From the IMG/VR virus record IMGVR_UViG_3300025018_000106: a stretch of DNA of 20,000 bases; one strand, written 5' to 3'. Source of the stretch: an uncultured virus (IMG/VR IMGVR_UViG_3300025018_000106) (taxonomy: Duplodnaviria > Heunggongvirae > Uroviricota > Caudoviricetes). How positions within the stretch are numbered: position 1 is the first letter of the stretch; the number at the start of each line of letters is the position of its first letter. The notes under the pieces are model-generated. The model was not told the DNA's origin, searched no databases, and saw only the letters and a program-made list of their open reading frames with translations. The position numbers and the translations under genes are program-made. Shown one piece after another: positions 8,596-19,727 of this stretch.

Positions 8596-8672
8596 GCGCC
8601 CGTAGCTCAACTGGACAGAGCAAGTGACTTCTAATCACTAGGTCGAGGGTTCGAATCCTTCCGGGCGCGCCA
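8596..8672 (+). tRNA. tRNA-Arg(TCT)
   Basis: Canonical cloverleaf, loop CT-TCT-AA, encoded CCA. Confidence 0.97.
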
Positions 8673-8689
8673 TATCATGGAGAAATATC

Positions 8690-8901
8690 ATGGTTGATCT
8701 TGACCAAATCGCAATCGACTTAATCGAAGCAGCACGCGACAACGAAGAAGTAACGCAAGCGCGCAAGCGCGCATTTCTTTGATGGTCCAGAACGATGAAG
8801 GTTTCGTGACGGAACAAGTCTACACCATCCGGTATTACGAGGACCGAGACGGTCGACCGGACTATCAGTGGACCATTTCGTCCAATCCGATCACGCGCTA
8901 A
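8690..8901 (+). pseudogene. 67-aa ORF disrupted by an 8-nt tandem duplication
   Basis: GGAG RBS; CGCAAGCG x2 at 8754-8769; removing one copy gives one continuous ORF. Confidence 0.7.
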
Positions 8902-8902
8902 A

Positions 8903-8988
8903 GCGGGCGTGGCGAAACGGCAGACGCAGGAGGCTTAAACCCTCTGGTCAGAAATGGCGTGCGGGTTCAAATCCCGCCGCCCGCACCA
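8903..8988 (+). tRNA. tRNA-Leu(TAA)
   Basis: Class II cloverleaf, CCA. Confidence 0.95.
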
Positions 8989-9003
8989 AACAAGGAGTAT
9001 ATC

Positions 9004-9141
9004 ATGGGTATCTTGAAAGGCGCCGCGGTGATCTTCATGGGAATGATTATCTTTTCGTTCGCCATCACCGCATGGGACCTTTTCGTGACTGATCCGTGTC
9101 AGTCTTTCAATCGTGGTTACGCCGAAGGATGCGAACAATGA
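9004..9141 (+). CDS. small membrane protein
   Basis: AAGGAG RBS; one TM segment. Confidence 0.7.
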   Translation: MGILKGAAVIFMGMIIFSFAITAWDLFVTDPCQSFNRGYAEGCEQ

Positions 9142-9317
9142 GCAAACGCGAAGATATCATCCGCATGGTCATGGAAGCGCCTGACCACAAGATCGAACAA
9201 CTGTTCCGTGACATGGGCATCGAATTGGACCTGAGTGGTCAGCATCCCGTCGTGGACATTGAAACCCAAACCTCCGAGGACATGATGTTCACACATTTGT
9301 ATGGAGATACACGATGA
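9138..9317 (+). CDS. hypothetical protein
   Basis: ATGA-coupled; MSKREDIIRM... Confidence 0.7.
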   Translation: MSKREDIIRMVMEAPDHKIEQLFRDMGIELDLSGQHPVVDIETQTSEDMMFTHLYGDTR

Positions 9318-9559
9318 ATTTCGACCAAACTCTATGGCTAGGCTTAGACAGCATTCAAGCTCTCTATCTGGCCATACCTTTTGCAATCGTATCAGCACTC
9401 ATTGCCAGATACACAAACAGAAACGCGACGTTTTGGTTTTTGGCTTCTTTCCCCTTTTCGATTCTAGCCTTTGGTTATCTTGTGATAACATGGATGTTCG
9501 GCAAGGCAGCGAAAGACTCTTCTGATCTTGTCAAAATGGCGAAAGGAGAAGAAGTATGA
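9314..9559 (+). CDS. small membrane protein
   Basis: ATGA-coupled, GGAG RBS, two TM segments. Confidence 0.75.
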   Translation: MNFDQTLWLGLDSIQALYLAIPFAIVSALIARYTNRNATFWFLASFPFSILAFGYLVITWMFGKAAKDSSDLVKMAKGEEV

Positions 9560-9735
9560 CGCACGAAACCGCTTTCCTGATTCTTTCTTCTATGTCTGTT
9601 TTGTGGGTTGTTTATGCACTCCATCTGACAGCAAAAAGAAAGGAAAAGTCCTTTCTGGCTTATTTGGTGATCTACTTCGGCGTTCTTTTTCCGCCTCTCT
9701 GGATCGCTTATTTCTACATGAAAAATCGCGCCTGA
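9556..9735 (+). CDS. small membrane protein (59 aa)
   Basis: AGGAG RBS, ATGA-coupled; MTHETAFLILSS...YFYMKNRA. Confidence 0.75.
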   Translation: MTHETAFLILSSMSVLWVVYALHLTAKRKEKSFLAYLVIYFGVLFPPLWIAYFYMKNRA

Positions 9736-9739
9736 TATC

Positions 9740-9831
9740 GGTCCTGTAGCTCAATGGTAGAGCGGTGTCCTTATAAGACATGAGCGCCTGATTAGCGCAC
9801 GATGTAGGTTCGATTCCTACCGGGACTACCA
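9740..9831 (+). tRNA. tRNA-Ile(TAT) with long variable arm
   Basis: GTGTC-CTTATAA-GACAT anticodon arm; V-arm GCGC-CTGATTA-GCGC; A73, CCA. Confidence 0.88.
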
Positions 9832-9833
9832 TT

Positions 9834-9909
9834 GCTCCTGTAGCTCAGCGGTTAGAGCTGCCCGCTCATAACGGGTAGGTCGCAGGTTCGAATCCTGCCG
9901 GGAGCACCA
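9834..9909 (+). tRNA. tRNA with CAT anticodon, probably Ile2 (lysidine type)
   Basis: Canonical cloverleaf; C4:G69 and C5:G68 as in TilS substrates. Ile versus Met is inferred. Confidence 0.85.
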
Positions 9910-9938
9910 AAAAAATTCGAAAAAACTGAAAAAAGTGC

Positions 9939-9967
9939 TTGACGAATCAGACCAAATCATATAAATA
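9939..9967 (+). promoter_or_regulatory. composite sigma70-like and late (TATAAATA) promoter
   Basis: A-tracts, TTGACG 9939, TATAAATA 9960-9967. Confidence 0.7.
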
Positions 9968-10008
9968 TGGTCACATCAAGACACAGACTTTACTAAGGAA
10001 CTAGCCCA

Positions 10009-10128
10009 ATGACAACCCATTATTGCAAAAAGCAGATGCAAACGCTCGCGAACCCCATTCGCGTCACCGCTCTGATTGCGCGTAATGAGGGCTTTGGAAA
10101 TGGACATATGGAGGGCTACATGGGATAA
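10009..10128 (+). CDS. putative attenuator leader peptide (39 aa)
   Basis: AAGGA RBS; MTTHYCKKQMQTLANPIRVTALIARNEGFGNGHMEGYMG; 3' end complementary to the terminator arm. Confidence 0.65.
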   Translation: MTTHYCKKQMQTLANPIRVTALIARNEGFGNGHMEGYMG

Positions 10129-10154
10129 CAAGTGATCCCAGTAACGAGTAGCAC

Positions 10155-10187
10155 AAGGCCCTCCGCTAAAACGGAGGGTCTTTTTTT
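10155..10187 (+). terminator. intrinsic terminator (attenuator)
   Basis: AAGGCCCTCCG-CTAAAA-CGGAGGGTCTT followed by a T7 tract. Confidence 0.88.
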
Positions 10188-10499
10188 ATGGATGACAAAG
10201 AGGCAAAGATACGAGATTTTTTACAAGAACTTGCGAAGGCTTGGCCATACAAACGCATTGTGATACCGAAACATCTTCTGAAAAGATGGGACGAAGAACG
10301 CGGCGACGGTATGGTGACGAAAGAAATGGCCTTGACTGTTGACAAAGACTTCGATATCTCAGATGATGAACAACTCTGGGAGCTGATGTTGAAACTGAGA
10401 GAGTCCACGAAGAATGCAAAACCTCTCCGCTTCAATGATCTGAAGCTGAGAGAGTCCAACCCACCGAAAACCGGTGTGGAAAAGACGAAACTGATATAG
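10188..10499 (+). CDS. hypothetical protein
   Basis: 103-aa ORF whose GGAGG RBS is the terminator 3' arm. Confidence 0.7.
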   Translation: MDDKEAKIRDFLQELAKAWPYKRIVIPKHLLKRWDEERGDGMVTKEMALTVDKDFDISDDEQLWELMLKLRESTKNAKPLRFNDLKLRESNPPKTGVEKTKLI

Positions 10500-10501
10500 A
10501 C

Positions 10502-10575
10502 GGGGCACGTCTATGGGTAGCGGGCGATCCTTGCAAGATTGCTGTCAAAGGGTTCGATTCCCTTGTGTTCCACCA
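10502..10575 (+). tRNA. tRNA-Ala(TGC), reduced D-arm
   Basis: G3·U70, A73, loop CT-TGC-AA, T-arm, CCA. Confidence 0.85.
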
Positions 10576-10580
10576 ACAAC

Positions 10581-10657
10581 GGTGCTGTAGCTCAGTTGGC
10601 CAGAGCGCGCCGCTCATAACGGCGAGGTCGGTGGTTCGATGCCACCCAGCACCACCA
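10581..10657 (+). tRNA. tRNA-Met(CAT), elongator type
   Basis: Canonical cloverleaf, paired 1:72, no 3GC initiator stem. Confidence 0.9.
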
Positions 10658-10676
10658 AAAAAGTGACAGATAGTGG

Positions 10677-10705
10677 TTGACACGCAAAGCGAATCGCACT
10701 ATATG
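10677..10705 (+). promoter_or_regulatory. early promoter, GAATC family
   Basis: TTGACA 10677, GAATC 10691, TATATG 10700, TGTAAC x2. Confidence 0.8.
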
Positions 10706-10814
10706 TAACATGTAACGAAAGAGATTGCGGCGTTGGGAGACTGGCCCGCCTGAGCAGAAACCCCCTGCGAGAAACTAACCAATACGGTTCTCACAAATAG
10801 GGTAAAAAAAGGTC

Positions 10815-10843
10815 TTGACATTGTGAACGAATCACGATAGAAA
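10815..10843 (+). promoter_or_regulatory. early promoter, GAATC family
   Basis: TTGACA 10815, GAATC 10829, TAGAAA 10838. Confidence 0.75.
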
Positions 10844-10849
10844 GATCAA

Positions 10850-10877
10850 GTCTTGAAAGAGACACGCTCTTTGAAAA
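10850..10877 (+). promoter_or_regulatory. rrn-like boxB/boxA antitermination signal
   Basis: GTCTT-GAAA-GAGAC hairpin followed by CGCTCTTTGAAAA. Confidence 0.65.
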
Positions 10878-10913
10878 TTTAGTCTTTGACTTAGGGGAAA
10901 CCCGATGATAGTC

Positions 10914-11048
10914 TGAAAACAGAGACCGAGACGCGAATGTGCGTAAGGTCAAAGTTAGTATCTGTTTTCACATGTTGACATTCGGTGGACGACCAGGCTG
11001 AAAAACCTGGCTGACGAAAACTTTGTGTCAACAGTTGAAAACAGATAC
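10914..11048 (+). ncRNA. structured leader RNA with long inverted repeat
   Basis: GTATCTGTTTTCA/TGAAAACAGATAC (13 bp) plus TGTTGACA/TGTCAACA; no ORF. Confidence 0.5.
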
Positions 11049-11135
11049 GGGGGTGCGCCAGAGTTGGAGAGCTGGGGCGGTCTGTAAAACCGTTGCTGAA
11101 AAGCTGAGTAGGTTCGAATCCCACCACCCCCACCA
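11049..11135 (+). tRNA. tRNA-Tyr(GTA)
   Basis: Class II cloverleaf, CCA. Confidence 0.93.
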
Positions 11136-11146
11136 AATACAGGATC

Positions 11147-11229
11147 GTTGTTCCTACCTAGGCGCTAACGGACCAGAGACGAAATCTCACTACGGTCGCC
11201 GCCCGCCCAAACAAGTATAGGTTAACAAC
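11147..11229 (+). ncRNA. putative structured spacer RNA
   Basis: Nested stems GTTGTT/AACAAC, ACCTA/TAGGT, GGCG/CGCC, GACC/GGTC, GAGA/TCTC. Confidence 0.4.
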
Positions 11230-11237
11230 ACACACTG

Positions 11238-11382
11238 GCGCGGGACGCTGAGTCCGTAAGACGCGAGAATTCATTCCCCGGAACGCACAAGGCGTGCGGC
11301 CTGACTGTTAATCAGTGTGAGGGTGGTTCGATTCCACCTCGGGGAGCCAATACGAGCGCAGGACGACGAGTCCGTAAGACGC
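11238..11382 (+). repeat. 27-nt direct repeat (11238-11264, 11356-11382)
   Basis: GCGCrGGACGnnGAGTCCGTAAGACGC, 24/27 identical. Confidence 0.85.
11275..11349 (+). tRNA. tRNA-Asn(GTT)
   Basis: U1:A72, G73, loop CT-GTT-AA, CCA. Confidence 0.9.
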
Positions 11383-11391
11383 ACGAAATAC

Positions 11392-11490
11392 CGGGGCGTT
11401 GGAAAGCGGTATACGATGATGCACATGTTGGCAGAAAGGGTAGCTCCCGGGCGCATGTGTTGTGGGTTCAAGTCCCGCCGACCCCGACCA
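11392..11490 (+). ncRNA. tRNA-like RNA lacking a canonical anticodon arm
   Basis: CGGGGCG/CG(A)CCCCG-ACCA; T-arm GTGGG-TTCAAGT-CCCGC; long internal helix. Confidence 0.7.
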
Positions 11491-11494
11491 ATTC

Positions 11495-11570
11495 GCTAGT
11501 GACTGTCTAATGGAAAGGCAGGCGGCCGATAACCGTCCACGAGGATGTTCGATTCATCCCACTAGCACCA
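11495..11570 (+). tRNA. tRNA-Ile(GAT) with C33
   Basis: GCTAGTG/CACTAGC, loop CC-GAT-AA, CCA. Confidence 0.85.
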
Positions 11571-11572
11571 AG

Positions 11573-11749
11573 TTTGCGGTAGCTTAACAATCGCGCCTCG
11601 CGAACGCGATAAAGTGACCATGTATATGGCATGGTAGATGGGTGACAGTAGAGGAAAGTGGTCGACCTACACCCACTGTCTTTAGAGACGAAGTGTCAGC
11701 GCACAGAACTTAGAATTCTGAGACACATCGGACTCACCCCGCAAAGCCA
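11573..11749 (+). ncRNA. multi-stem RNA closed by a 7-bp stem plus GCCA
   Basis: TTTGCGG/CCGCAAA-GCCA enclosing at least 6 helices. Confidence 0.55.
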
Positions 11750-11822
11750 ACACGGTACCCCACGGGGTGGGGCTAAGACGCTCGGGGAGTAGTGCCTACC
11801 ACATACGCAACAGAGGAGACCC

Positions 11823-11999
11823 ATGATGTTGACACGTTACCAAAGAGTGATGGTTGGTTTTTGTGAAATCGCAGATGGGCTTCTGGCTGTCTTGACACTC
11901 GGAAGCAAGCGAAGAAACTATGCCTTCCACATGACAGCAAAATACGAATTGCGCAATCTGAAACGATGCGCCAAAGAGAGAAATGCCCGCGCGACGTAA
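11823..11999 (+). CDS. hypothetical protein (58 aa)
   Basis: GAGGAG RBS; MMLTRYQRVMVGFCEIADG...; stop lies inside the next tRNA. Confidence 0.7.
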   Translation: MMLTRYQRVMVGFCEIADGLLAVLTLGSKRRNYAFHMTAKYELRNLKRCAKERNARAT

Positions 12000-12062
12000 T
12001 TGGCATAGCGTACCACCCTTAGAAGGTGGGTTTTGGGGGTTCGAGTCCCTCCGCGGGTACCA
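11985..12062 (+). tRNA. tRNA-Leu(TAG), short variable loop
   Basis: CCACC-CTTAGAA-GGTGG, 5-nt variable loop, CCA. Confidence 0.88.
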
Positions 12063-12079
12063 TATTTCAAACGGAGACG

Positions 12080-12229
12080 ATGATGAAAATCACGATCAAA
12101 CGGGAGGACTTGCCGAAACGGCGTAATCCCGAGTTTCTTGCCGCTCGAAAGCGCAAGGCGGGCGCTCACGAAAAACCTTACAATGAACGTCGAAACAACA
12201 AGGCTGCACTCCGAAAGGAGTGGGCATGA
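12080..12229 (+). CDS. small basic protein (49 aa)
   Basis: GGAG RBS; KRRNPEFLAARKRKAGAHEK. Confidence 0.75.
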   Translation: MMKITIKREDLPKRRNPEFLAARKRKAGAHEKPYNERRNNKAALRKEWA

Positions 12230-12240
12230 ATGGACGGGTA

Positions 12241-12323
12241 GGACGGGTAGACGAAAAGCGGTGTGGACTGCTAGTGGGCTTTTAATCCACGGTCAAGGGG
12301 TTCGACTCCCCACCCGTTCTCCA
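12241..12323 (+). tRNA. tRNA-Lys(TTT), atypical D region
   Basis: GGACGGG/CCCGTTC-TCCA; GTGGG-CTTTTAA-TCCAC; expanded D region. Confidence 0.78.
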
Positions 12324-12333
12324 ATACTTCAAT

Positions 12334-12410
12334 GATACGTCAAGCCCAAAGAGACGGAAGGACGTTGTTAGGATACAAGGCTTGAGGGACTGTTGCAACC
12401 TTGACGTATC
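12334..12410 (+). ncRNA. putative structured spacer RNA
   Basis: Perfect 11-bp GATACGTCAAG/CTTGACGTATC. Confidence 0.4.
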
Positions 12411-12436
12411 TTTCAAGTATTGAGATTAGGCAGACC

Positions 12437-12520
12437 TAGGCGGTAGAGTAGGGTGATCCCTGACACTCCGAAAAATGGGAAACAGGTTCAGGGGCCCGGT
12501 GCAAATCCTCCCGCTGCCTA
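12437..12520 (+). ncRNA. putative structured RNA with T-loop-like motif
   Basis: TAGGCGGT/GCTGCCTA, TCCCTGA/TCAGGGG, GGTGCAAATCC. Confidence 0.4.
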
Positions 12521-12530
12521 TTGAAATCAC

Positions 12531-12605
12531 GCGGCCGTAGCTCAGGGGTAGAGCGGCAGACTGAAAATCTGCGCGTCGGAGGTTCGATTCCTCCCGGTCG
12601 CACCA
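12531..12605 (+). tRNA. tRNA-Phe(GAA)
   Basis: Canonical cloverleaf, CCA. Confidence 0.97.
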
Positions 12606-12611
12606 AAATAT

Positions 12612-12685
12612 TGCCCGGTCGTCTAATGGCAGGATAACAGACTTTGAATCTGGAGACGCTGGTTCGACCCCAGCCCGGGCAACCA
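12612..12685 (+). tRNA. tRNA-Gln(TTG)
   Basis: U1:A72, canonical arms, CCA. Confidence 0.93.
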
Positions 12686-12698
12686 ATAGGAGAGTAAG

Positions 12699-12908
12699 AT
12701 GGCAAAGATCAAGAACGAGGACTTTCCGAGAGACGCACAAGCGATTGTGGATCGGCTTTCGAAGGTCGAAGATTTGAACAAGTCGTCTGCCGCTTACCTA
12801 AAGATCATTCCCACCTTCATCGAAGATGGTGACGGTAGGTTCGCGTTCACTCTTGCGAGTCGCGCAGCTTTCATGCACGAATATTGTGAGTCCCAGAAGT
12901 CTAAATAG
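12699..12908 (+). CDS. hypothetical protein
   Basis: AGGAG RBS. Confidence 0.75.
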   Translation: MAKIKNEDFPRDAQAIVDRLSKVEDLNKSSAAYLKIIPTFIEDGDGRFAFTLASRAAFMHEYCESQKSK

Positions 12909-12932
12909 GGTGTAACAATAAGGAAAACACCC

Positions 12933-13286
12933 ATGACACCGAGACTGAAAAGGAACCTTACCATGATTGGTCTTGTCGCAGGCACCATTGTATCCGTAGC
13001 AGGCGCGTTGGCAGTGTTCGATATCGAACCGCCAAGACCTGTGTTCAAAAGCCAACTTGTTCAAGTCCAGATGCAAGTCCTAGAGTTGGACAGCATTATC
13101 ACTTCACAACAGTTGAACGACCAGAGATTGCGGTTGTATCAGAACGAACGCGAATCGCAACAGTGGTTAACAGAGGAAGGTTTCGTGCCTGACTGGCTTC
13201 TAGAGGAGCGCGTCCTGTTGGAGAGTGAGATTGACGCTCTGAGAAATCGACTTGACGTTATTCGCCAACAGGCGGTTGACAACTAA
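12933..13286 (+). CDS. membrane-anchored coiled-coil protein
   Basis: AAGGA RBS, N-terminal TM, late-like CTAAATA at 12901. Confidence 0.8.
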   Translation: MTPRLKRNLTMIGLVAGTIVSVAGALAVFDIEPPRPVFKSQLVQVQMQVLELDSIITSQQLNDQRLRLYQNERESQQWLTEEGFVPDWLLEERVLLESEIDALRNRLDVIRQQAVDN

Positions 13287-13304
13287 AACGAATCATGATA
13301 CAAA
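13276..13304 (+). promoter_or_regulatory. early promoter, GAATC family
   Basis: TTGACA 13276, GAATC 13290, TACAAA 13299, TGTAAC. Confidence 0.75.
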
Positions 13305-13387: not shown

Positions 13388-13906
13388 ATGTCCAGAACGC
13401 ACCGTAAACCGCGTTGGTATGTTGAACACACCGACGCATCCTACATAAACCGCGAGTTGGAATACCACACTCGCCGTCCCTATCGTCTTGTCAAGGTTCG
13501 TAAGACCGACGAAGAATTCGATAAAGAAATGGCCGCTGCGATCCGTGAATACGAAGCAGCAGTCAAAAAGAACGGCGGCAGCACGACCTACGTTGAATGG
13601 TCTCGCTGGTGTGAATGCTATGTGACCCGCGAAATTCGTAAACCTTGGGTCAGTCGTCACCGTTACGAGCGTGTCCCTTACTCGGTTGACGAATGTATCG
13701 AAGATGCGAAGAAAGAACGCGCGAAACTGACCCGCGACGGCAACATGTCCGAAAGCGGTCGCCGCAAGTATTTCAAGTATCTCGCAAAGAAAGAAGTGCG
13801 CTCTGAGTGGCGCAACATGAAACAGAAAATTCTCAAAGGCGAGGATTACGATGAATATTGCCCACACGACCGTCTTGGTAAAAAGCACGTCTGGTCTGTG
13901 TGGTGA
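13388..13906 (+). CDS. highly charged hypothetical protein
   Basis: AGGAGG RBS; MSRTHRKPRW... Confidence 0.85.
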   Translation: MSRTHRKPRWYVEHTDASYINRELEYHTRRPYRLVKVRKTDEEFDKEMAAAIREYEAAVKKNGGSTTYVEWSRWCECYVTREIRKPWVSRHRYERVPYSVDECIEDAKKERAKLTRDGNMSESGRRKYFKYLAKKEVRSEWRNMKQKILKGEDYDEYCPHDRLGKKHVWSVW

Positions 13907-13912: not shown

Positions 13913-13988
13913 GCCGCTTGAGTGTTGATGGCTAGCACGCTTGGTTGTGGACCAGGAAGATCGGGATCGTAACCCGAGGGCGGTACCA
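13913..13988 (+). tRNA. tRNA-His(GTG), alphaproteobacterial type
   Basis: Loop TT-GTG-GA; G1·U72, A73, no encoded G-1. Confidence 0.88.
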
Positions 13989-13994: not shown

Positions 13995-14070
13995 GGACCG
14001 GTAGCTGAGAGGCGTAGCGGCGGGCTCTTACCCCGCGTCAACGTGGGTTCGAATCCCACCCGGTTCACCA
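13995..14070 (+). tRNA. tRNA-Lys(CTT)
   Basis: GCGGG-CTCTTAC-CCCGC, CCA. Confidence 0.92.
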
Positions 14071-14077: not shown

Positions 14078-14151
14078 CTGGGTGTGTTGTAGTGGTAACT
14101 TATCCGGCTTGGACCCGGAAGTCGCAGGTTCGATTCCTGCCACCCAGACCA
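14078..14151 (+). tRNA. tRNA-Pro(TGG)
   Basis: C1:G72, A73, loop CT-TGG-AC. Confidence 0.9.
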
Positions 14152-14161: not shown

Positions 14162-14190
14162 CTGACATTCTCTGACGAATCACTTATATA
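14162..14190 (+). promoter_or_regulatory. early promoter, GAATC family
   Basis: CTGACA 14162, GAATC 14177, TATATA 14185, TGTAAC. Confidence 0.75.
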
Positions 14191-14214: not shown

Positions 14215-14535
14215 ATGGAACTCACGAAAGAGAACATCGTCCGCCTGCTTGAGAGTAATGACAAAGCTGTTGGTCGAGCGCTTCTGGTTCTGAAACGAAA
14301 CCAGACGCTCGATGAACAGACTTCAAAGAATACGAAGCACCACAACGGCAAGGGCTTTCGTCCCGCTCATGCGTTCATGGGCACCGAAATGGCGGTGTTT
14401 TTCGAGACGAAAGGTTACCTGTCTCCGAAGCAAGTCGCCTACTGGCGCAAGCGAGACAAGAACGGTAACATGCGGATTGGTATCTACTGGCGACAGTTGA
14501 TCGAAGCCGCGAAAGAGAAACAAACGGTAGGGTGA
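14215..14535 (+). CDS. conserved phage hypothetical protein
   Basis: GAGG RBS; RNQTLDEQ...HNGKGF...LSPKQ...YWRQL. Confidence 0.85.
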   Translation: MELTKENIVRLLESNDKAVGRALLVLKRNQTLDEQTSKNTKHHNGKGFRPAHAFMGTEMAVFFETKGYLSPKQVAYWRKRDKNGNMRIGIYWRQLIEAAKEKQTVG

Positions 14536-14609
14536 CGGAACGGTAACGTGCCGGATTGCAAATCCGAGGCCGCGAAAGCGAGTGGGTTCAATTCCCACCC
14601 CTACCTCCA
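14526..14609 (+). tRNA. tRNA-Cys(GCA) with long variable arm
   Basis: U73, loop TT-GCA-AA, V-arm CGC-GAAA-GCG. Confidence 0.88.
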
Positions 14610-14617: not shown

Positions 14618-14932
14618 ATGATGAATTTGCGATGGTATCTTTGGTCCAAGTGGGTCTACAAAGTGAACATGGCGAAAAAGCGCGTTCGATTGGTCATGGG
14701 CGGCGTCAAAAGGTTCCCTCAAGACTACACGCAGCAAGAACTCGCCGCTCTGGTTACACATCATCACGAAAAACATGTTGAAGCAGCAACGAAGCTGATG
14801 GAGACAAGAGACAAGCTGATACAGGCGCAAAAAGAGCTGTCTGTTTACAAACGAGGCAAGAACGACCTTGCAAAAGAAATAATCAAACTCCAGAAGGAGT
14901 TAAAAGAAGCCCAGAACATAAGCTGGGATTGA
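14618..14932 (+). CDS. hypothetical coiled-coil protein
   Basis: AAGGTG RBS; MMNLRWY... Confidence 0.75.
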   Translation: MMNLRWYLWSKWVYKVNMAKKRVRLVMGGVKRFPQDYTQQELAALVTHHHEKHVEAATKLMETRDKLIQAQKELSVYKRGKNDLAKEIIKLQKELKEAQNISWD

Positions 14933-14937
14933 AATAT

Positions 14938-15012
14938 GACTCGGGAACTGTCTGGGACAGGGTGCGTCTGCAAAACGTTATCTTACGGGTTCGATTCCCG
15001 CCCGGGTCTCCA
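14938..15012 (+). tRNA. tRNA-Cys(GCA), atypical D-arm
   Basis: GACTCGG/CCGGGTC-TCCA, loop CT-GCA-AA, D-arm CTGTC-TGG-GACAG. Confidence 0.72.
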
Positions 15013-15022
15013 AAATTACTAT

Positions 15023-15101
15023 GCACCCATGGTCTAGTTGGTCCAGGACGCCGGATTTTCACTCCGGAGGACGCAGGGTTCGAATCCCGCTGGGTGTACC
15101 A
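15023..15101 (+). tRNA. tRNA-Glu(TTC)
   Basis: CCGGA-TTTTCAC-TCCGG, CCA. Confidence 0.92.
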
Positions 15102-15106
15102 ATCAC

Positions 15107-15180
15107 TGTCCCGTAGCTCAAAGGTAGAGCACTCCCCTGATAAGGGAAAGACGCAGGATCGTTACCTGCCGGGACAACCA
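15107..15180 (+). tRNA. tRNA-Ile(GAT)
   Basis: Loop CT-GAT-AA; variant T-loop ATCGTTA; CCA. Confidence 0.88.
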
Positions 15181-15207
15181 ATCAACCTTAGTGAAAAGGA
15201 CTATATC

Positions 15208-15630
15208 ATGGGAACTCGGTCGCTGACCCACATCAAGGACGACAACGACAACACTCTGGTGACCATCTATCGGCAATACGATGGATATCCGACCGGAATG
15301 GGCCAAGACTTGAAAGATATTCTGGCACCGAAGCGACTCGGCAATGGCGTCGGAGGCGGTGCTACGCTTGAGAACTTCGCAAACGGAATGGGTTGTGCCG
15401 CAGCAGCCGTGATCGCCGCGTTGAAAGACGATGTAGGCAACGTCTACATTCAAACACCAGATGCAACAGACTGTTGGGAAGAATACGTTTACACGATCCG
15501 GCCGATGGACGAGACGTTCAGCATCACCGTCTATTCCGTCTATGGCGAACGCGTCCTTTACGAAGGTTCGATCATCGACTTCGATCCTGAGGCAGCAGAA
15601 CGCGACCCAGACGAGGACGACGAAGAATAA
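15208..15630 (+). CDS. conserved phage hypothetical protein
   Basis: AAGGA RBS; MGTRS...YRQYDGYP.G.G...EEYVY. Confidence 0.85.
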   Translation: MGTRSLTHIKDDNDNTLVTIYRQYDGYPTGMGQDLKDILAPKRLGNGVGGGATLENFANGMGCAAAAVIAALKDDVGNVYIQTPDATDCWEEYVYTIRPMDETFSITVYSVYGERVLYEGSIIDFDPEAAERDPDEDDEE

Positions 15631-15641
15631 ATAAGAGACAC

Positions 15642-15716
15642 GCCGCGTTAGTATAATGGCGATTACACCTGTGTGGTATACAGGAGACGAAGGCTCGATT
15701 CCTTCACGCGGCACCA
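15642..15716 (+). tRNA. tRNA-Thr(GGT)
   Basis: GCC start, loop GT-GGT-AT, CCA. Confidence 0.9.
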
Positions 15717-15726
15717 AGATTTACAT

Positions 15727-15809
15727 GCCCATGTAACCGACGCCGGCTACGAACCGGTGACCCGTAACTGGAGTTGAAAATGTAGGTTCGAATCCTACCA
15801 TGGGTGCCA
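15727..15809 (+). tRNA. D-armless tRNA-Arg(ACG) with 23-nt variable region
   Basis: Intact acceptor, anticodon and T arms; only 8 nt where the D-arm should be. Confidence 0.75.
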
Positions 15810-15815
15810 AAAAAT

Positions 15816-15896
15816 GGGTCTGGGGGCGTATGTTGGGAAACGCGGTGCCATCAAAAGGCACAGTTATCGCCGGTTCGAGTCCGGTCAGATCCACCA
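15816..15896 (+). tRNA. tRNA with CAA (Leu) anticodon and G3·U70 acceptor
   Basis: GGGTCTG/CAGATCC-ACCA; GTGCC-ATCAAAA-GGCAC; 7-nt variable loop. Confidence 0.8.
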
Positions 15897-15903
15897 AATT
15901 AAT

Positions 15904-15974
15904 ACCCCAGCCGCTGAGACGGACAAGGCCTTCTAAGCCGACGACGGAGGGTTTGATTCCTTCCTGGGGTGCCA
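15904..15974 (+). tRNA. tRNA-Arg(TCT), degenerate/shortened
   Basis: ACCCCAG/CTGGGGT-GCCA, loop CT-TCT-AA, reduced D-arm, 71 nt. Confidence 0.65.
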
Positions 15975-15979
15975 ATTTC

Positions 15980-16053
15980 TGCCCGTTCGTCTAACGGTAG
16001 GACGCTAGACTCTGACTCTAGAAATTGCGGTTCGAATCCTCGACGGGCAACCA
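15980..16053 (+). tRNA. tRNA-Gln(CTG)
   Basis: CTAGA-CTCTGAC-TCTAG, U1:A72, CCA. Confidence 0.92.
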
Positions 16054-16069
16054 ATATCATGAGACGACT

Positions 16070-16273
16070 ATGACGCAAGAAAACTACTTCACGTTCGCAT
16101 TCAACGTCGATCCAGAGTTGAACGGTGGATACACAGAAGCCTTCAAACAAGGCGACGAACCTTGGTGGTGGTATGTGAAAGACGACGAAGGTCCGGCAGC
16201 CGGACCTGTTCCCGACTTCACAGGCGCAACGTTCAAGTCGCTTCATCAATGGAACAAACAATTGCTTCCGTAG
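16070..16273 (+). CDS. hypothetical protein
   Basis: MTQENYFTFAF...; stop lies inside the next tRNA. Confidence 0.7.
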   Translation: MTQENYFTFAFNVDPELNGGYTEAFKQGDEPWWWYVKDDEGPAAGPVPDFTGATFKSLHQWNKQLLP

Positions 16274-16339
16274 CTCAGTGGACAGAGCACCGGGTTTCGA
16301 CCCCGGGTGTCGCGGGTTCGAATCCTGCCGGGAGCTCCA
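16264..16339 (+). tRNA. tRNA-Arg(TCG)
   Basis: A20 in D-loop, loop TT-TCG-AC, CCA. Confidence 0.93.
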
Positions 16340-16344
16340 ACAAG

Positions 16345-16419
16345 GCGCGATTAGCTCAGTGGTAGAGCGCTTCCGTGACATGGAAGAGGTCCATGGTTCG
16401 AACCCATGATCGCGCACCA
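16345..16419 (+). tRNA. tRNA-Val(GAC)
   Basis: Canonical cloverleaf, CCA. Confidence 0.95.
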
Positions 16420-16434
16420 TATTGCCATATTGAC

Positions 16435-16508
16435 GCCGGTATAGTATAGTGGCATTACAACGGCTTCGTAACCCGTAGACAGTGGTTCGATTCCACTTAC
16501 CGGCACCA
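16435..16508 (+). tRNA. tRNA-Thr(CGT)
   Basis: GCC start, loop TT-CGT-AA, CCA. Confidence 0.9.
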
Positions 16509-16517
16509 GAGGATGAA

Positions 16518-16766
16518 ATGAGAATCGCAGAACTCTTTGTCAAAGCAGGTCTTTGTGCGACTAACAAGGAAGCCAAGAGACTTATCACAAGCGGCGGCGC
16601 GCGAATTGATGATGTTGTCGTTGACGATCCTTCACTCGAAGTCTTGCCCTACAAAAACGGCATCGTGATAGGTTGGTCGGTTGACGACTACTTTGTGCTT
16701 CATGAATGTTCTTCCAAGAAGTTTGGAGTGGAAGGAAAAACCATCATACTTCAAAAAGACACTTGA
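16518..16766 (+). CDS. stand-alone S4 RNA-binding domain protein (TyrRS C-terminus-like)
   Basis: IAELFVKAGLCATNKEAKRLITSGGARIDDVVVDDP...KKF. Confidence 0.8.
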   Translation: MRIAELFVKAGLCATNKEAKRLITSGGARIDDVVVDDPSLEVLPYKNGIVIGWSVDDYFVLHECSSKKFGVEGKTIILQKDT

Positions 16767-16790
16767 CTTTCTCGGAGAATCACCTATGTT
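16763..16790 (+). promoter_or_regulatory. early promoter, GAATC family
   Basis: TTGACT 16763, GAATC 16777, TATGTT 16785, TGTAAC. Confidence 0.8.
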
Positions 16791-16817
16791 ATAGGTGTAA
16801 CAGCGAGAGAGTTTGCT

Positions 16818-17393
16818 ATGAAAATCGACGCGACTTCGTTCTCCTCTCAACCCGGCAGCCTGAAGTCTGATTATCTCGGTTCCGGTTCGTTCGCAGAAGT
16901 TTACGACTCGAAGGTTGAAGGTTATGTCCTGAAAGAAGGTTTCAAAGGCAAACTCGACAAAGATATGTGGCTTATCTGGGCCTTGTATTGCATGGCAAAC
17001 AAGAACATGTTTGATTGGATGCCGAAGGTCGAAGTGATCGCCATCGACCATGAGAACGAAAAGTTTTACGCTCTCATGGAGAAGCTGGAAGAACAGGAAG
17101 GCGATTACGAAGTCAACATCAGCACCCGTGACTTTCTGCAAGGCCGCGATGAAGGTGTGAACCTTCCTGAGAACATCGTTGAAGAACTGAAACTGGTCAT
17201 TGACGAACTTCTCGGCGTTGTCTCGGAAGATACGAACGACTTCTACATTGACGGTCATGCCGCGAACATCATGGTCCGTTCCTGCGGACAGATCGTTCTG
17301 ACCGATATCGTTCACAAGTGGTGCGTCAACATTCGCAATACCGCTGAGTCGTTGATTGCAAAGTGTAAGGACCGCGTTTTCTACATGAGCTGA
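16818..17393 (+). CDS. Ser/Thr protein kinase-like (T7 gp0.7-type)
   Basis: Gly loop LGSGSFAEVY, VLK, MEKL hinge, catalytic DGHAANIM, VLTD. Confidence 0.8.
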   Translation: MKIDATSFSSQPGSLKSDYLGSGSFAEVYDSKVEGYVLKEGFKGKLDKDMWLIWALYCMANKNMFDWMPKVEVIAIDHENEKFYALMEKLEEQEGDYEVNISTRDFLQGRDEGVNLPENIVEELKLVIDELLGVVSEDTNDFYIDGHAANIMVRSCGQIVLTDIVHKWCVNIRNTAESLIAKCKDRVFYMS

Positions 17394-17401
17394 GGTACCA
17401 A

Positions 17402-18031
17402 ATGAAATATTACGTTTTTCCCGACATTCACGGCCGCAACGACCTGTTGCAGGCCGCGTTGTCATTTGTATATGAACAGAACCCAAACGGCGGCAAGATC
17501 GTCTTTCTCGGTGACTACATCGACCGTGGTTCCGACAATGTTGGCGTCCTAGAGACAGTCATGAACCCGCCGGAAGGATGGGAATTCGTGACGCTCAAGG
17601 GCAATCACGAATCGATGTTCGTCGGTGGTTACAACCGTCTCCACGAGTATTACGACATGAAAGCGGTCAAAGAGATTGTCTCCAAGATGGACCTGCCGAG
17701 TGTCGTGAAATGGATGGACAACCTGCCTATCGTGCATATCGAAGGCATGAACATCTTTGCACACGCGTTCTATGACCCGTATTTGTCGCCCGAACAACAG
17801 GTCGAAGATTACGTTGTCTGGCAGCGTTACACCGACGGTGAGCCCTTCCGTTTGTATCTGACGGAAGGTTACTACCTAACGCACGGACACACACCGCGCA
17901 AGTATGGTCCCGTGAAAGCGATGGGTCGTCTGAACCTTGACGTTGGCGCTGTGTTCTACGGCCGGTATGTCATTGCCGAGTTTGAGGAAGGCGTAACTGG
18001 TCCTGTTGGGTTCAAAGAGTTTGAGGAATAA
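17402..18031 (+). CDS. calcineurin-like metallophosphoesterase (Ser/Thr phosphatase family)
   Basis: DIHG, GDYIDRG, GNHE, HGHTP. Confidence 0.93.
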   Translation: MKYYVFPDIHGRNDLLQAALSFVYEQNPNGGKIVFLGDYIDRGSDNVGVLETVMNPPEGWEFVTLKGNHESMFVGGYNRLHEYYDMKAVKEIVSKMDLPSVVKWMDNLPIVHIEGMNIFAHAFYDPYLSPEQQVEDYVVWQRYTDGEPFRLYLTEGYYLTHGHTPRKYGPVKAMGRLNLDVGAVFYGRYVIAEFEEGVTGPVGFKEFEE

Positions 18032-18061
18032 ATACCCGGAAAGTAAAACCGGGAGATTGTC

Positions 18062-19493
18062 ATGTCAAACTCATTGAAAGAATTCGTTCAACTTGTCAAC
18101 GAGGAAATGAAGCGGAAGAAGCAAACGGTTGAACCAGATTTGCGCGAAACCTTCACGACTCAGGACTTCACATCTCTACACCACGACCCGATTGAACCAC
18201 ACCACACAGACGAAGAAGCGGCGATTCTGGAAGTCGCCGCCAAGATGGGTTACATGACAAAGGACAAGAGCGACCTTAGTGCGCCTGATCCTCTGCAACC
18301 TCTTGACCAGAAATTCGTCACGATGGAACAATTCAACAAGCACTACAACGACTTTGCCAAGCGGATTCAATTCCAACTCGGCCAAGTCGGCGGTGGTGGT
18401 GAGGTCTGGATTCGCCGTATGCAAGACGCCGGCGACATGACACAGACAGGTTTCGTCAAGTTTGACTCAAACACCAAACTGTTTACGACTGATCCTGATC
18501 TTGGACCACTTGAACTGTTGTCTTTCGATACTACCTATGTCGCAGGCGACCAACCTGCTGGCACACTCGCTTGGGACCCAAGAGACAACACGGTTCGTAT
18601 CTATCACAACGAAGGCACGATCCAACAGGTCGGACAAGAGGCATTCATCTACGCAATCAACAACACCGCGAACACCATTCCTGACGGCACGGTTGTATCA
18701 CACAACGGCGCCGAGTTGAACGGCGATTGCGCCATTCATTTCAGACGGAACGATTGGCAGCTCAAGACTTCTTGGTGTTGTGACACAAGACATTGTACCT
18801 GGCGAGACCGGTTTCGTGACCACGTTCGGCGTTGTTCGTAATCAGAACACGACAGGCGCTCCTTTCAGCGAGACTTGGACGGCCGGTGATATTCTTTACG
18901 CGAACCCGAACATCGCAGGTGGTTTCACAAACGTTCGTCCTACAACACCCGATATCGTTGAACCGATGGGTTTCGTTCTAAACGTCGATGAAACGGCCGG
19001 CACGATTTTCATTCGTCCTGTTATCAATTCGCAAGAGTTTGCTGGCGAGTTTTCAGCAACCGCAAACGTCGCGGTTGCAGCTGCGAACACCGCATATACA
19101 ATTGCGTTCAATAACACAATTTCGCAAGACGGTGTGTCACTCGCACAAGGAAATCCATCCAGAATCGTCGCTTCTCGCGCGGGTTACTACAATCTGAACT
19201 TCAATGGTCAGATCAATTTTAACTCGGGCGGCGCAGGCGAAGCGACGATGTATGTGTGGATTCGAAAGAACGGCGTTGACGTTCCTGGTTCTATGAGACG
19301 ACAGAGCGTCGCAGGCAACACGCCTTTCCGCAACCTGTCTTTCCACCAGAACCTTTCGATGGCCGCAAACGACTACATCGAAATCGCGTATGCAGGCAGC
19401 TCAAACTTGCTTCTCTGGGAAGCGGCGCCGGCAACGGCATTCGGTCCTTCGACCTCGGCTGCCTACGTTTCTTTCTATCAGGCACAGCAATAA
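18062..19493 (+). CDS. late, probably virion-associated protein split by a frameshift at about 18720-18730
   Basis: AATAAATA at 18027; first frame protein-like to ..GAELNG, second frame from IAPFISDG..LLGVVTQDI..; beta-rich C-terminus. Confidence 0.65.
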
Positions 19494-19497
19494 AGGC

Positions 19498-19525
19498 TTG
19501 CCTTTTCGGTTCGGATCGGTATAAT
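19498..19525 (+). promoter_or_regulatory. sigma70-like promoter (GGATC variant)
   Basis: TTGCCT 19498, GGATC 19513, TATAAT 19520. Confidence 0.65.
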
Positions 19526-19641
19526 CACTTCCTGTAAGGCTGAAAGACCAGGAAGGCACTATGCGAAAAAAGGTCTGTAGTAGCGAGCGGGAATTCTGAG
19601 ACCTTGAAATACCCATTAGATCGCCAGTAGCCCGCTCATCT

Positions 19642-19727
19642 GCCCGGATGGTGGAATGGTATACACAGCAGCTTGAGGGGCTGCCGCTCTTATGAGCACG
19701 AGGGTTCGAATCCCTCTCCGGGCACCA
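19642..19727 (+). tRNA. tRNA-Leu(GAG)
   Basis: Class II cloverleaf, CCA. Confidence 0.96.

Follow-up and report, generated by a model that had tools for sequence, protein, structure and literature searches.

A putative tRNA supply island with conserved non-canonical tRNAs in a large uncultured groundwater phage

It has long been asked why phages carry tRNAs, and point-mutated phage tRNAs have recently been shown to defeat tRNA-cleaving immunity. The tRNA-Lys, tRNA-Thr, and tRNA-Asn of phage T5 counter AriB of PARIS, and phage tRNAs also counter retron effectors (tRNA-Tyr) and PrrC, as described in PMC12409363. Dense arrays of same-strand tRNA genes and small open reading frames (ORFs) in an early or non-structural region of a large phage are seen in the T4 tRNA cluster and the T5 tRNA region. 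The T4 cluster includes two stable RNAs of no known function. Here, we analyze an array of this kind in a 20,000-nucleotide (nt) stretch of DNA from an uncultured virus of the Caudoviricetes (IMG/VR record IMGVR_UViG_3300025018_000106), which we refer to as the window. Its island of tRNA genes runs from position 8596 to 19727, and all features below are on the plus strand unless stated. We consider it probable that this is a tRNA supply island of a large uncultured groundwater phage, with conserved non-canonical decoders that are shared among alpha-proteobacterial phages.

Comparable islands occur in the roseophages DSS3_MAL1, V10, MD18, and DSS3P8. Those of DSS3_MAL1, V10, and MD18 are also dense same-strand tRNA arrays with small ORFs, and several tRNA families are common to them and the window. 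However, they include a tmRNA, a nucleotidyltransferase, and a peptidyl-tRNA hydrolase, and we saw no counterpart of any of these in the window. By tblastn with the 172-aa ORF and the S4 protein, we found no shared protein genes, the backbone here is T4-like rather than that of a siphovirus, and the proportion of non-canonical tRNAs here is high. The nearest related island is on G002, a 92.5-kb IMG/VR fragment (only about 25% complete) with 34 ARAGORN-called tRNAs in its last 15 kb. At about 77,400 to 92,503 of G002, at least 34 tRNA genes continue up to the contig end, and they include further odd forms, an 88-nt tRNA-Cys and a gene with a two-base "anticodon" call.

Irregular tRNAs in alpha-proteobacterial phages were described by Mukai et al. 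(PMC5389517), whose text reports 8/4 tRNA-Ser and tRNA-His in phage clusters, the tRNA-His lacking G-1 and having A73 or U73. It also reports allo-tRNAs, often with a UAU anticodon, and a selC* tRNA-Cys with U73 and GCA (PMC5389517). Three of these forms have counterparts in the window: a tRNA-His with A73 and no G-1, a tRNA with a long arm and the anticodon UAU, and a tRNA-Cys that combines a long arm with U73 and GCA. However, the irregular tRNAs of Mukai et al. have a 12-bp acceptor branch split 8/4 or 9/3, whereas all elements that we tested fit the ordinary 7/5 frame. When checked by hand, an eighth acceptor pair would be a mismatch in the tRNA-His, the long tRNA-Cys, and the tRNA-Ile(UAU). 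We saw no mention of other forms found here (a tRNA-Ala with a mini-D-arm, a tRNA-Lys with a D insert, a tRNA-Arg-like element without a D-arm, and a tRNA-Ile with C33) in passages of PMC5389517, although its supplementary figures may show more.

ARAGORN called 24 tRNA genes between 8596 and 19727, all on the plus strand and all ending in an encoded CCA. Relaxed thresholds gave 51 and 128 calls in the window, which were mostly noise and served only as a pointer. Parsing candidates from the 3' end (CCA, N73, a 7-nt acceptor strand, and then a 5-7-5 T-arm) added five elements: Asn(GUU), Lys(UUU), a second Cys(GCA), an Arg(ACG)-like element, and a weak Arg(UCU)-like element. In these five, the acceptor stem shows no departure from full pairing beyond one G:U wobble at most, and the T stem has no more than one mismatch. 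A first-pass annotation of this DNA had counted 29 tRNAs with an encoded CCA and had judged about a third of them to be structurally deviant. We arrived at the same total, and at deviant structure in approximately 12 of the 29 (about four in ten). A sixth parsed candidate (11391-11490), with a T-arm, a CCA, and five of seven acceptor pairs, is doubtful. All 30 parsed elements end in CCA. The acceptor stem is fully paired in 29 and the acceptor and T stems are both fully paired in 21. One or two T-stem mismatches occur in nine, and the element at 11391 fails in both stems.

In a scan of the whole window, 21 tRNAs reached the gathering threshold (29 bits) of the Rfam tRNA model RF00005, and two more passed with laxer filters on short stretches (14938-15009, 30.4 bits; 15727-15806, 31.2 bits). 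Four scored below the threshold: Leu(CAA) at 26.9 bits, Lys(UUU) at 26.1 and Asn at 25.8 (both with the Sec model), and the element at 15904 at 19.3. There was no Rfam match whatever for Ala at 10502, Ile at 11495, or 11391-11490. Together, the tRNAs cover 16 amino acids; Gly, Ser, Asp, and Trp tRNAs are missing from the window.

The deviant set consists of Ala(UGC), Ile(GAU) at 11495, Lys(UUU), Asn, Arg(ACG)-like, Leu(CAA), Leu(UAG), Cys at 14526, Ile(UAU), the second Cys, His, and Tyr. Their cores have a mini or missing D-arm, an insert in the D-arm, C33, a long variable arm (Cys and Ile(UAU)), or a short one (Leu), and the acceptor, anticodon, and T arms are intact. The tRNA-Ala(UGC) variant (10502-10575) was called by ARAGORN. 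Its D-stem is 3 bp, its D-loop 4 to 5 nt, and its anticodon stem 6 bp, and it has G3:U70, the alanine identity pair. It is the island's best DNA match to any cultured phage (86 to 91% identity to DSS3_MAL1, MD18, DSS3P8, and vB_RpoS-V10), and it is also present in three IMG/VR contigs. In an alignment of seven sequences (six distinct), all 21 cloverleaf pairs were standard in every sequence, six of them with compensatory changes, and none of 500 shuffles was as good. As a control, sliding the pairing partners by one to three columns reduced pairing to 40 to 56%. G3:U70 was invariant in seven of seven. Two further copies, on metagenome contigs L084 and L098, have wholly changed anticodon-stem sequences that still pair.

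This tRNA-Ala variant has no annotated feature in DSS3_MAL1 (6822-6896 of locus L002), MD18 (11805-11879 of locus L006, minus strand), vB_RpoS-V10 (6595-6668 of locus L005), or DSS3P8 (14399-14472 of its own record). Therefore, the tRNA counts published for these four records are probably too low. For MD18, the authors reported 32 tRNAs by tRNAscan-SE (PMC7643831). We also scanned metagenomes for the variant with a degenerate 16-mer. This was too loose: only 2 of the 80 loci fetched (from at least 118 matches) were real and the rest were chance, and it gives no measure of prevalence.

Other deviant tRNAs also have homologues that keep their structure. The tRNA-Lys(UUU) (12241-12323, 83 nt, found by 3'-end parsing) has an 8-nt insert, GACGAAAR, ahead of the D-stem and the anticodon loop CUUUUAA. 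Its G002 homologue, which ARAGORN did not call, is 87% identical, with 20 of 20 pairs kept (five compensatory) and the insert conserved. A 9-nt tandem copy of the acceptor 5' strand (GGACGGGTA) lies directly upstream of the gene at 12232-12240; it is absent from G002 and could give alternative pairing in the precursor. The tRNA-Asn(GUU) (11275-11349, also from 3'-end parsing) has a 5-bp D-stem and a 5-nt D-loop without GG. It is homologous to the annotated tRNA-Asn of DSS3_MAL1 and to sequences in MD18 and locus L009, with the D-arm and anticodon-stem pairs kept. In the tRNA-Ile(GAU) at 11495-11570, which ARAGORN called and which has a 5-bp D-stem, C33 replaces the universal U33. The anticodon arm of its G002 homologue is identical, and the changes in the D- and T-stems are compensatory.

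Variable arms were altered in both directions. The tRNA-Leu(UAG) (11985-12062, 78 nt, Rfam 51.2 bits) has a short variable loop and thus a class-I shape, where tRNA-Leu normally has a long arm, and homologues are present in G002 and locus L008. Conversely, the tRNA-Cys(GCA) at 14526-14609 (84 nt, Rfam 54.7 bits) has a long variable arm. Compared with its homologues in DSS3_MAL1, MD18, and G002, the variable-arm sequences of the four phages are unrelated but always form a hairpin. The second tRNA-Cys(GCA)-like element (14938-15012, Rfam 30.4 bits with lax filters) has a 5-nt D-loop, and both Cys variants combine U73 with the GCA anticodon. The tRNA-Ile(UAU) (9740-9831, 92 nt, Rfam 62.1 bits) combines a 7/5 frame with a class-II shape, its long variable arm being GCGC-CUGAUUA-GCGC. 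The tRNA-Leu(CAA) (15816-15896, 81 nt), called by ARAGORN, has a short variable region. It is 85% identical to an unannotated sequence at 3346-3432 of L098, with the stems kept and one-sided changes. L098 is a 5.4-kb contig with 20 ARAGORN-called tRNAs, and ARAGORN called neither its Leu(CAA) nor its Arg(ACG)-like homologue.

The Arg(ACG)-like element (15727-15809) has no D-arm and a 23-nt variable region, and the Rfam model aligns only to its acceptor and T-arm. Its loop, CUACGAA, is conserved. In the L098 homologue (778-862), one acceptor pair is compensatory, and the anticodon stem has changed in sequence without losing its pairing. The tRNA-His(GUG) (13913-13988, Rfam 32.0 bits) has a G1:U72 wobble, A73, no encoded G-1, and the T-loop AUCGUAA, and has a homologue in G002. 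The tRNA-Tyr(GUA) (11049-11135, Rfam 39.6 bits) is class II, with C8 and a T-stem mismatch. Overall, changes on both sides of pairs were seen in Ala, Lys, Ile(C33), Asn, Cys, Arg(ACG)-like, and Leu(UAG). In the first six of these deviant genes, the anticodon arm is also conserved. Because homologues keep the odd structures through compensatory changes, these tRNAs are not decay products. The comparisons support purifying selection on them.

We considered whether the deviant elements might instead be decaying pseudogenes or assembly noise. This has some appeal for 11391-11490, 14938-15012, and 15904-15974, which have weak anticodon or acceptor stems and no full-length homologue, and a 1-nt deletion at 11480 is present in contigs of two DNA runs. 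However, nine deviant families have structure-keeping homologues, 29 of 30 acceptor stems (and, in 21, the T stems too) are fully paired, and three independent DNA runs carry the same island sequence with few differences. Such homologues refute decay for the conserved families, and for the deviant set in general we regard decay or noise as very improbable. In the DNA-run contigs, there is also an 8-nt deletion at 8754, inside a 30-amino-acid (aa) micro-ORF, in two of the three runs, and the deletion at 11480, inside the doubtful element, was likewise in two of the three. Depths at 11480 are above the phage's usual level, and both deletions may be strain variants or cross-mapping. A leader of approximately 36 nt (GCGC-R-GGACG..GAGTCCGTAAGACGC..GAA) is present in copies that are about 80% identical at 11238-11274 and 11356-11391. 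Because these copies precede tRNA-Asn and the doubtful element 11391-11490, respectively, a duplicated leader-plus-tRNA unit is suggested.

How might such an island work? Host RNA polymerase would transcribe its units early. Host RNase P and 3' trimming would then release mature tRNAs that do not need CCA addition, and the tRNA set would free phage translation from the host tRNA pool. The odd cores would persist most likely through escape from enzymes that recognize standard tRNA cores, perhaps nucleases of the host that attack anticodons or tRNAs, or perhaps the host shut-off of the phage itself. Identity elements in the acceptor and anticodon are kept, for example G3:U70 in Ala and the combination of U73 and GCA in Cys. 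Evasion of nucleases predicts that odd tRNAs are conserved, whereas decay does not.

Escape from tRNA-targeting enzymes is plausible and would agree with the data. The precedent invoked in the first-pass annotation is genuine, because phage tRNAs neutralize PARIS, retron, and PrrC-type nucleases, as reported in PMC12409363. The window also has Lys(UUU), Asn(GUU), Thr(CGU), and Tyr(GUA) tRNAs. Here, Lys(UUU) and Asn(GUU) deviate in the D region, which that report proposes as the AriB contact site (PMC12409363), and Lys(UUU) has C41, at the position of the "Mut2" change of T5. However, the known cases are point changes in the anticodon stem-loop, whereas whole arms are remodeled here, as judged from sequence.

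Several observations weigh against a supply island whose odd tRNAs are functional decoders that escape nucleases. The ORFs of the window show no preference for codons that a cognate phage tRNA reads (mean relative synonymous codon usage [RSCU] of 1.04 versus 0.97, one-sided p = 0.20, in 4,576 codons), and therefore simple codon matching is not shown. The anticodon stem of Asn(GUU), U36-A-A-U-C-A41, is the motif preferred by AriB in E. coli (PMC12409363). Because it is kept, escape through the anticodon stem is not evident for this tRNA. Three elements had no full-length homologue among the fetched sequences, only short T-arm-type matches, and may be non-functional: 14938-15012 (T-arm-region matches to G002 and vB_RpoS-V10), 15904-15974 (a 48-nt match at best, E = 0.004), and 11391-11490 (a 24-nt T-arm match to DSS3_MAL1, E = 0.006). 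The element at 15904-15974, weakly Arg(UCU)-like, has perfect acceptor and T stems and is possibly a pseudogene. Part of the island is present in a single metatranscriptome run, where exact contigs outside the 176-nt RNA described below are sparse, with depths of 2 to 5, and this run may contain DNA. Finally, a terminator with a leader ORF (10009-10182) leaves room for some regulation.

Would a simpler account suffice? The island could be a plain source of tRNAs whose odd cores are tolerated lineage quirks, spread by phage-phage transfer and with no link to defense. Its tRNAs read A/U-ending and rare codons such as UUA, AUA, CUA, AGA, and CGA, as expected for a phage with 50% GC. Also, the tRNAs of MD18 match codons enriched in that phage according to its authors (PMC7643831), and irregular tRNAs are known in alpha-proteobacterial phage clusters (PMC5389517). 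However, window codon use does not favor the cognate codons (p = 0.20). Furthermore, the tRNA-Ala variant is 86 to 91% identical between unrelated phages, whereas the island's canonical tRNAs match the same roseophages at about 70 to 83%. Therefore, selection on the variant's particular form fits better than neutral drift. The variant adjoins a canonical tRNA-Ala in G002 and DSS3_MAL1, so it is not simply the only tRNA-Ala available. We view this account as possible but on balance unlikely, and prefer a supply island in which the odd forms are maintained as conserved decoders.

The first-pass annotation had also listed at least six unexplained structured RNAs. Of these, two have evidence beyond folding (the first and fourth below), two were recognized from their folds, and the folds of the remaining gaps were indistinguishable from those of shuffles (z between -0.3 and -2.4, with one at +0.8). 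The first is a conserved non-tRNA hairpin RNA of approximately 85 nt and five helices at 11147-11233. It is 84% identical to 79437-79523 of G002, and 23 of 23 pairs are kept in both sequences, four of them compensatory. Its fold energy alone is unremarkable (z = -0.96), and it has no Rfam match. The second is a highly structured leader at 10846-11048 (z = -5.4 against shuffles), and an exact contig of the RNA run spans 10734-10903. The leader ends in a near-perfect 91-nt hairpin (10958-11048) that abuts the 5' end of tRNA-Tyr and would fit an RNase III-type processing site. The third, recognized by its fold only, is a long hairpin at 12324-12420, directly 3' of tRNA-Lys(UUU). Nearby, 12427-12523 has a 7-bp terminal helix (UAGGCAG/CUGCCUA), a D-arm-like CCUA-GGCGGUAGAG-UAGG, and a GCAAAUCC run. 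It is without a CCA or clear T-stem and without an ARAGORN or Rfam call, and may be a tRNA-derived element.

The fourth is a 176-nt RNA at 11573-11748, which was revealed by an RNA-run contig. Only the one metatranscriptome run contained part of the island, and because most of the island is uncovered in it, we draw no conclusion from the uncovered parts. In this run, a 206-nt contig with a depth of 19.5 maps to 11613-11748 and then to 11573-11642, in a head-to-tail joint. Its length is 176 + 30, which we interpret as a closed cycle assembled from 31-mers, the k-mer size given for the index of this run. Bins neighboring the 176-nt RNA have zero depth, and no contig of the three DNA runs contains the 11748-to-11573 joint. 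The RNA is thus discrete and abundant in this one run, although an RNA library may contain DNA. The joint may reflect a circle in the cell, or template switching or ligation during library preparation.

The RNA has tRNA-like ends (UUUGCGG ... CCGCAAA-G-CC), with seven Watson-Crick pairs, then G, CC, and a genomic A as the next base, and its start lies 3 nt beyond the CCA of the tRNA before it. By our arithmetic, the chance of seven Watson-Crick pairs at independently fixed ends is about 6e-5 per register. However, a generic scan for a 7-bp helix with NCCA gave 48 matches versus approximately 16 in shuffles, so the motif alone proves nothing. The RNA also contains an anticodon-arm-like hairpin, CAGAA-CUUAGAA-UUCUG, whose loop is identical to that of tRNA-Leu(UAG) in the island. 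The RNA has no Rfam match and no homologue in phage records or G002, where an ORF stands in its place downstream of the homologous tRNA-Ile. Exact-pattern IMG/VR scans for this RNA, the 85-nt RNA, and tRNA-Lys(UUU) gave nothing new beyond G002.

These ends raise the idea that the tRNA-like elements are mainly RNA-processing punctuation, with RNase P and 3'-end enzymes freeing or stabilizing small mRNAs and decoding being secondary. RNase P needs an acceptor helix and NCCA. Both 15727-15809 and the 176-nt RNA keep these features while their cores differ, the latter beginning just 3 nt past a CCA. In addition, tRNA genes are closely interleaved with ORFs, and the stop of an ORF often lies a few bases from, or overlaps, the 5' end of a tRNA. 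However, CUUUUAA in Lys, CUACGAA in Arg-like, G3:U70 in Ala, and U73 in Cys are conserved. Pure punctuation would not need conserved anticodon loops and identity elements, and we think this idea is improbable as the main role. A more ambitious proposal is that large alpha-proteobacterial phages share a transferable toolkit of tRNAs with rebuilt cores (D-arm, variable arm, and position 33) that evade host tRNA immunity or the phage's own shut-off while still being charged by host synthetases, and that in this phage includes the abundant, possibly circular 176-nt RNA as a stable sponge or decoy. We put this forward as a tentative idea that is rather unlikely to hold in full. A decoy role could apply only to three elements that lack homologues (15904-15974, 11391-11490, and the 176-nt RNA).

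The first-pass annotation had proposed something different from a supply island, namely a regulated translation-rescue module that senses translational slowing and deploys nuclease-resistant tRNAs and decoys. Spelled out from its parts, an attenuator would sense slow translation, boxA/boxB and N-like proteins would allow read-through, an S4 protein, a kinase, and a phosphatase would tune the response, and resistant tRNAs and decoys would be deployed. The transcription signals of the window bear on this. At least eight sigma-70-like promoters are predicted, most of them in one family with a shared motif (TTGAC, 9 to 10 nt, cGAATC(A), 2 to 3 nt, and a TA-rich segment), which reads as a sigma-70-like -35 box, a 16- to 17-nt spacer, and a -10 box. 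There are seven distinct plus-strand sites, with nine overlapping matches versus 0.94 expected from shuffles. They are at 7217-7244 (upstream of the island, and probably driving its first unit), 10678-10703, 10816-10839 (ahead of the structured leader), 13277-13300, 14163-14190, 16764-16791 (ahead of the kinase gene), and 19976. Because the first and last of these are outside the island, the family is not island specific. The site at 19976 also suggests that the island may continue past the window end. Another sigma-70-like promoter, TTGCCT-16-TATAAT, is ahead of the last tRNA at 19498-19525. A promoter-like TTGACG...TATAAATA is at 9939-9967. TATAAATA is a T4-type late-promoter motif, and it has three copies in the window (9960-9967 on the plus strand, and 1354-1361 and 7093-7100 on the minus strand; 0.18 expected). 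The first of these copies overlaps the promoter of the attenuator candidate.

That candidate has an attenuator-like layout. A promoter at 9939 is followed by a 39-codon leader ORF (10009-10128), the only convincing intrinsic terminator in the window (10155-10182, 11 pairs and a T run, -19.6 kcal/mol), an ORF at 10188, the tRNA-Ala variant, and a tRNA-Met. GGAGGGC (10110-10116) can pair with the terminator's 5' arm. Because the Shine-Dalgarno sequence of ORF 10188 (GGAGG) lies within the 3' arm, translation could be coupled to read-through. Promoter, short ORF, terminator, and alternative pairing segment are all shared with the trp and his attenuators. However, the terminator is favored over the antiterminator by about 7 kcal/mol (-19.6 versus -12.3 kcal/mol) and still folds with the leader held unpaired, and the leader peptide has no regulatory run of one codon. 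There is no comparative support for the layout. No relative shares it, and in G002 the tRNA-Ala variant follows another tRNA-Ala. Therefore, although the arrangement is there, the predicted energies are unfavorable, and 10009-10182 is a candidate attenuator only.

The boxA and boxB assignments fared similarly. There is one boxA-like GCTCTTTGAAAA at 10866-10877, approximately 20 nt downstream of a promoter, and it is the sole match to a loose boxA pattern that was written after seeing the sequence. However, this run is predicted to pair with AAAGAG upstream. It matches the E. coli rrn boxA at only 10 of 12 positions, although the consensus of the host may differ, and by our arithmetic such a match is expected by chance about 1.5 times in 40 kb. 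The one hairpin, at the apex of the 10958-11048 structure, is CCAGG-CUGAAAAA-CCUGG (CCAGG-CTGAAAAA-CCTGG in DNA), which is only loosely like lambda boxB. No N homologue or N-like protein was found among the window proteins in Pfam, PHROG, and further scans. Judged by composition, the most basic small protein (49 aa, pI 11) could be an arginine-rich, N-like candidate.

The protein-coding parts of the proposed module are real. The S4 protein (16518-16766) is a stand-alone domain of 82 aa that matches Pfam S4 (PF01479) over residues 1-43 at 24.4 bits, above the 22.8 cutoff (2.5e-5). Its best match among solved structures is the tRNA-binding C-terminal domain of Thermus thermophilus TyrRS (1h3e, 1.1e-4, approximately 40 residues). 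A HMMER search of 1.84 billion representatives returned 35 clusters at E ≤ 1e-3, and most are stand-alone proteins of 65 to 100 aa. Hsp15 and RqcP are S4-fold RNA binders. A T7 gp0.7-type protein kinase of 191 aa (16818-17393) matches phrog_15752 over residues 19-103 (5.6e-10). Its Atlas feature score is 0.97 and its structural TM score is 0.66 to Phage_T7_kinase clusters (PF27024), and the motifs GSGSFAEV, VLK, and DGHAANI can be read in it. It has no Pfam match and no meaningful sequence match to any solved structure, and a homologue search found only a 99%-identical fragment. Next to it is a NinI/lambda-type Ser/Thr metallophosphatase of 209 aa (17402-18031; phrog_246, 2.7e-42; Pfam Metallophos, 3.3e-10, above cutoff). 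These family-level matches to the T7 gp0.7 kinase, the lambda NinI phosphatase, and S4-fold binders come with no functional link to tRNAs.

Small basic proteins are also present as claimed, five of them. The 49-aa ORF at 12080-12229 has pI 11.0, 16 K+R, and no family match. The others are ORFs of 58 aa (11823-11999, pI 10.4), 172 aa (13388-13906, pI 9.5, 41 K+R, with a weak DUF7295 match of 5.8e-5 that is below the cutoff), 106 aa (14215-14535, pI 10.0, phrog_21015, 6.2e-18), and 104 aa (14618-14932, pI 9.9). Homologues of the 106-aa protein are found in Rhizobium, Rhodobacter, and Stenotrophomonas phages.

Are these the parts of a sensor? The promoter, leader ORF, and terminator, the alternative pairing of GGAGGGC, the Shine-Dalgarno sequence hidden in the terminator, and GCTCTTTGAAAA near a promoter would all suit a regulated module. 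So would the very basic 49-aa protein, the real S4, kinase, and phosphatase genes, and some tRNA-like elements that lack a usable anticodon arm or any homologue. However, the terminator is much more stable than the antiterminator, the arrangement is in no relative, the boxA-like run is predicted to be paired, and the promoters are of one general family. The kinase and phosphatase genes follow their own promoter at 16764. The S4, kinase, and phosphatase proteins had no match in G002, which is a fragment. In the fetched stretches of the roseophage islands none of the three is annotated, although no protein search was made there. We found no evidence that the island senses translation, and a regulated module of this kind seems quite improbable. 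The best reading is that the S4 protein, kinase, and phosphatase are ordinary early-gene neighbors of the tRNA supply island and not proven module parts.

The remaining tRNAs of the island are largely ordinary, and their Rfam scores are given in parentheses. Canonical genes are Arg(UCU) at 8596-8672 (70.2 bits), also called by ARAGORN, Met(CAU) at 9834-9909 (71.1) and in a second copy at 10581-10657 (66.4), Phe(GAA) at 12531-12605 (68.8), and Gln(UUG) at 12612-12685 (58.7). Leu(UAA) at 8903-8988 (55.5, ARAGORN, with CCA, as is Arg(UCU)) and Leu(GAG) at 19642-19727 (54.4) are class II. The others are Lys(CUU) at 13995-14070 (55.1), Pro(UGG) at 14078-14151 (57.5), Glu(UUC) at 15023-15101 (59.1), Ile(GAU) with the T-loop AUCGUUA at 15107-15180 (61.1), Thr(GGU) at 15642-15716 (59.6), Gln(CUG) at 15980-16053 (53.9), Arg(UCG) at 16264-16339 (65.8), Val(GAC) at 16345-16419 (66.6), and Thr(CGU) at 16435-16508 (64.0).

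Most of the ORFs between these tRNAs are small. Two overlapping micro-ORFs of 30 aa (8690-8782) and 39 aa (8782-8901) share a TGATG stop/start overlap. Four small ORFs (45, 59, 81, and 59 aa) fill 9004-9735; three look hydrophobic and membrane-protein-like, and the 59-, 81-, and 59-aa ORFs have no Pfam or PHROG match. The 103-aa ORF at 10188-10499 belongs to no Pfam or PHROG family, and ORFs of 69 and 117 aa (12699-13286), scanned against the same collections, were assigned no function. Acidic proteins are encoded by ORFs of 140 aa (15208-15630; phrog_1987, N-terminus only) and 67 aa (16070-16273). At 18062-19493, two overlapping ORFs of 259 and 237 aa lie in this early region, and the first has a tail-fiber match (phrog_28263, 2e-11). 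Toward its end the 259-aa ORF seems to have lost the reading frame, as though a frameshift near 18780-18841 had split a single gene, and no indel is listed near there in any of the three DNA runs.

The first 8.5 kb of the window, examined by Pfam and PHROG scans, carries nucleotide-metabolism and replication genes: a primase fragment, DHFR, thymidylate synthase, a class II ribonucleotide reductase, and a SegE-type GIY-YIG endonuclease. T4-like Sinorhizobium phages have the nearest primases (50% amino-acid identity), and the ribonucleotide reductase is nearest to that of Rhizobium phage RHph_I1_18 (69.7%). The SegE-type homing endonuclease (6078-6497, Pfam 1.9e-37) is just 3' of the reductase gene, and the reductase match in RHph_I1_18 likewise overlaps a putative homing endonuclease. 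Window GC content is approximately 50%. The window is found in aquifer and groundwater metagenome runs; at least half of the window's sampled words were present in 6 of the 24 runs listed, one of which is possibly the source sample.

Among 50,697 phage records, megablast and blastn found only tRNA-sized DNA matches between cultured phages and the island, and tblastn found no match to the 172-aa ORF or the S4 protein. A related-locus search of IMG/VR found no relative carrying the 172-aa ORF, the kinase, or an S4 alignment, and the record G001 overlaps the window only as far as position 8765. A tRNA-His with A73 and without G-1 is the type of one alpha-proteobacterial group and its phages (PMC5389517). 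Because the tRNA-His of the window has A73 and no G-1, it points to an alpha-proteobacterial host of that type.

These findings bear on how phage tRNAs are counted and how they may evolve. Standard annotation undercounts phage tRNAs, because the Rfam tRNA model has no match to the tRNA-Ala variant and four GenBank records are featureless where it lies. Should the 176-nt RNA, with its tRNA-like ends and circular junction, be confirmed, it would represent a new kind of phage small RNA. The tRNA-Ala variant sits unannotated in cultured roseophages with growable hosts, Ruegeria and Phaeobacter, and therefore its charging, decoding, and nuclease resistance are directly testable. Compared with the point mutations already shown to defeat tRNA-cleaving immunity, the pattern here is more radical, in that whole arms are remodeled and the remodeled forms are conserved across unrelated phages.

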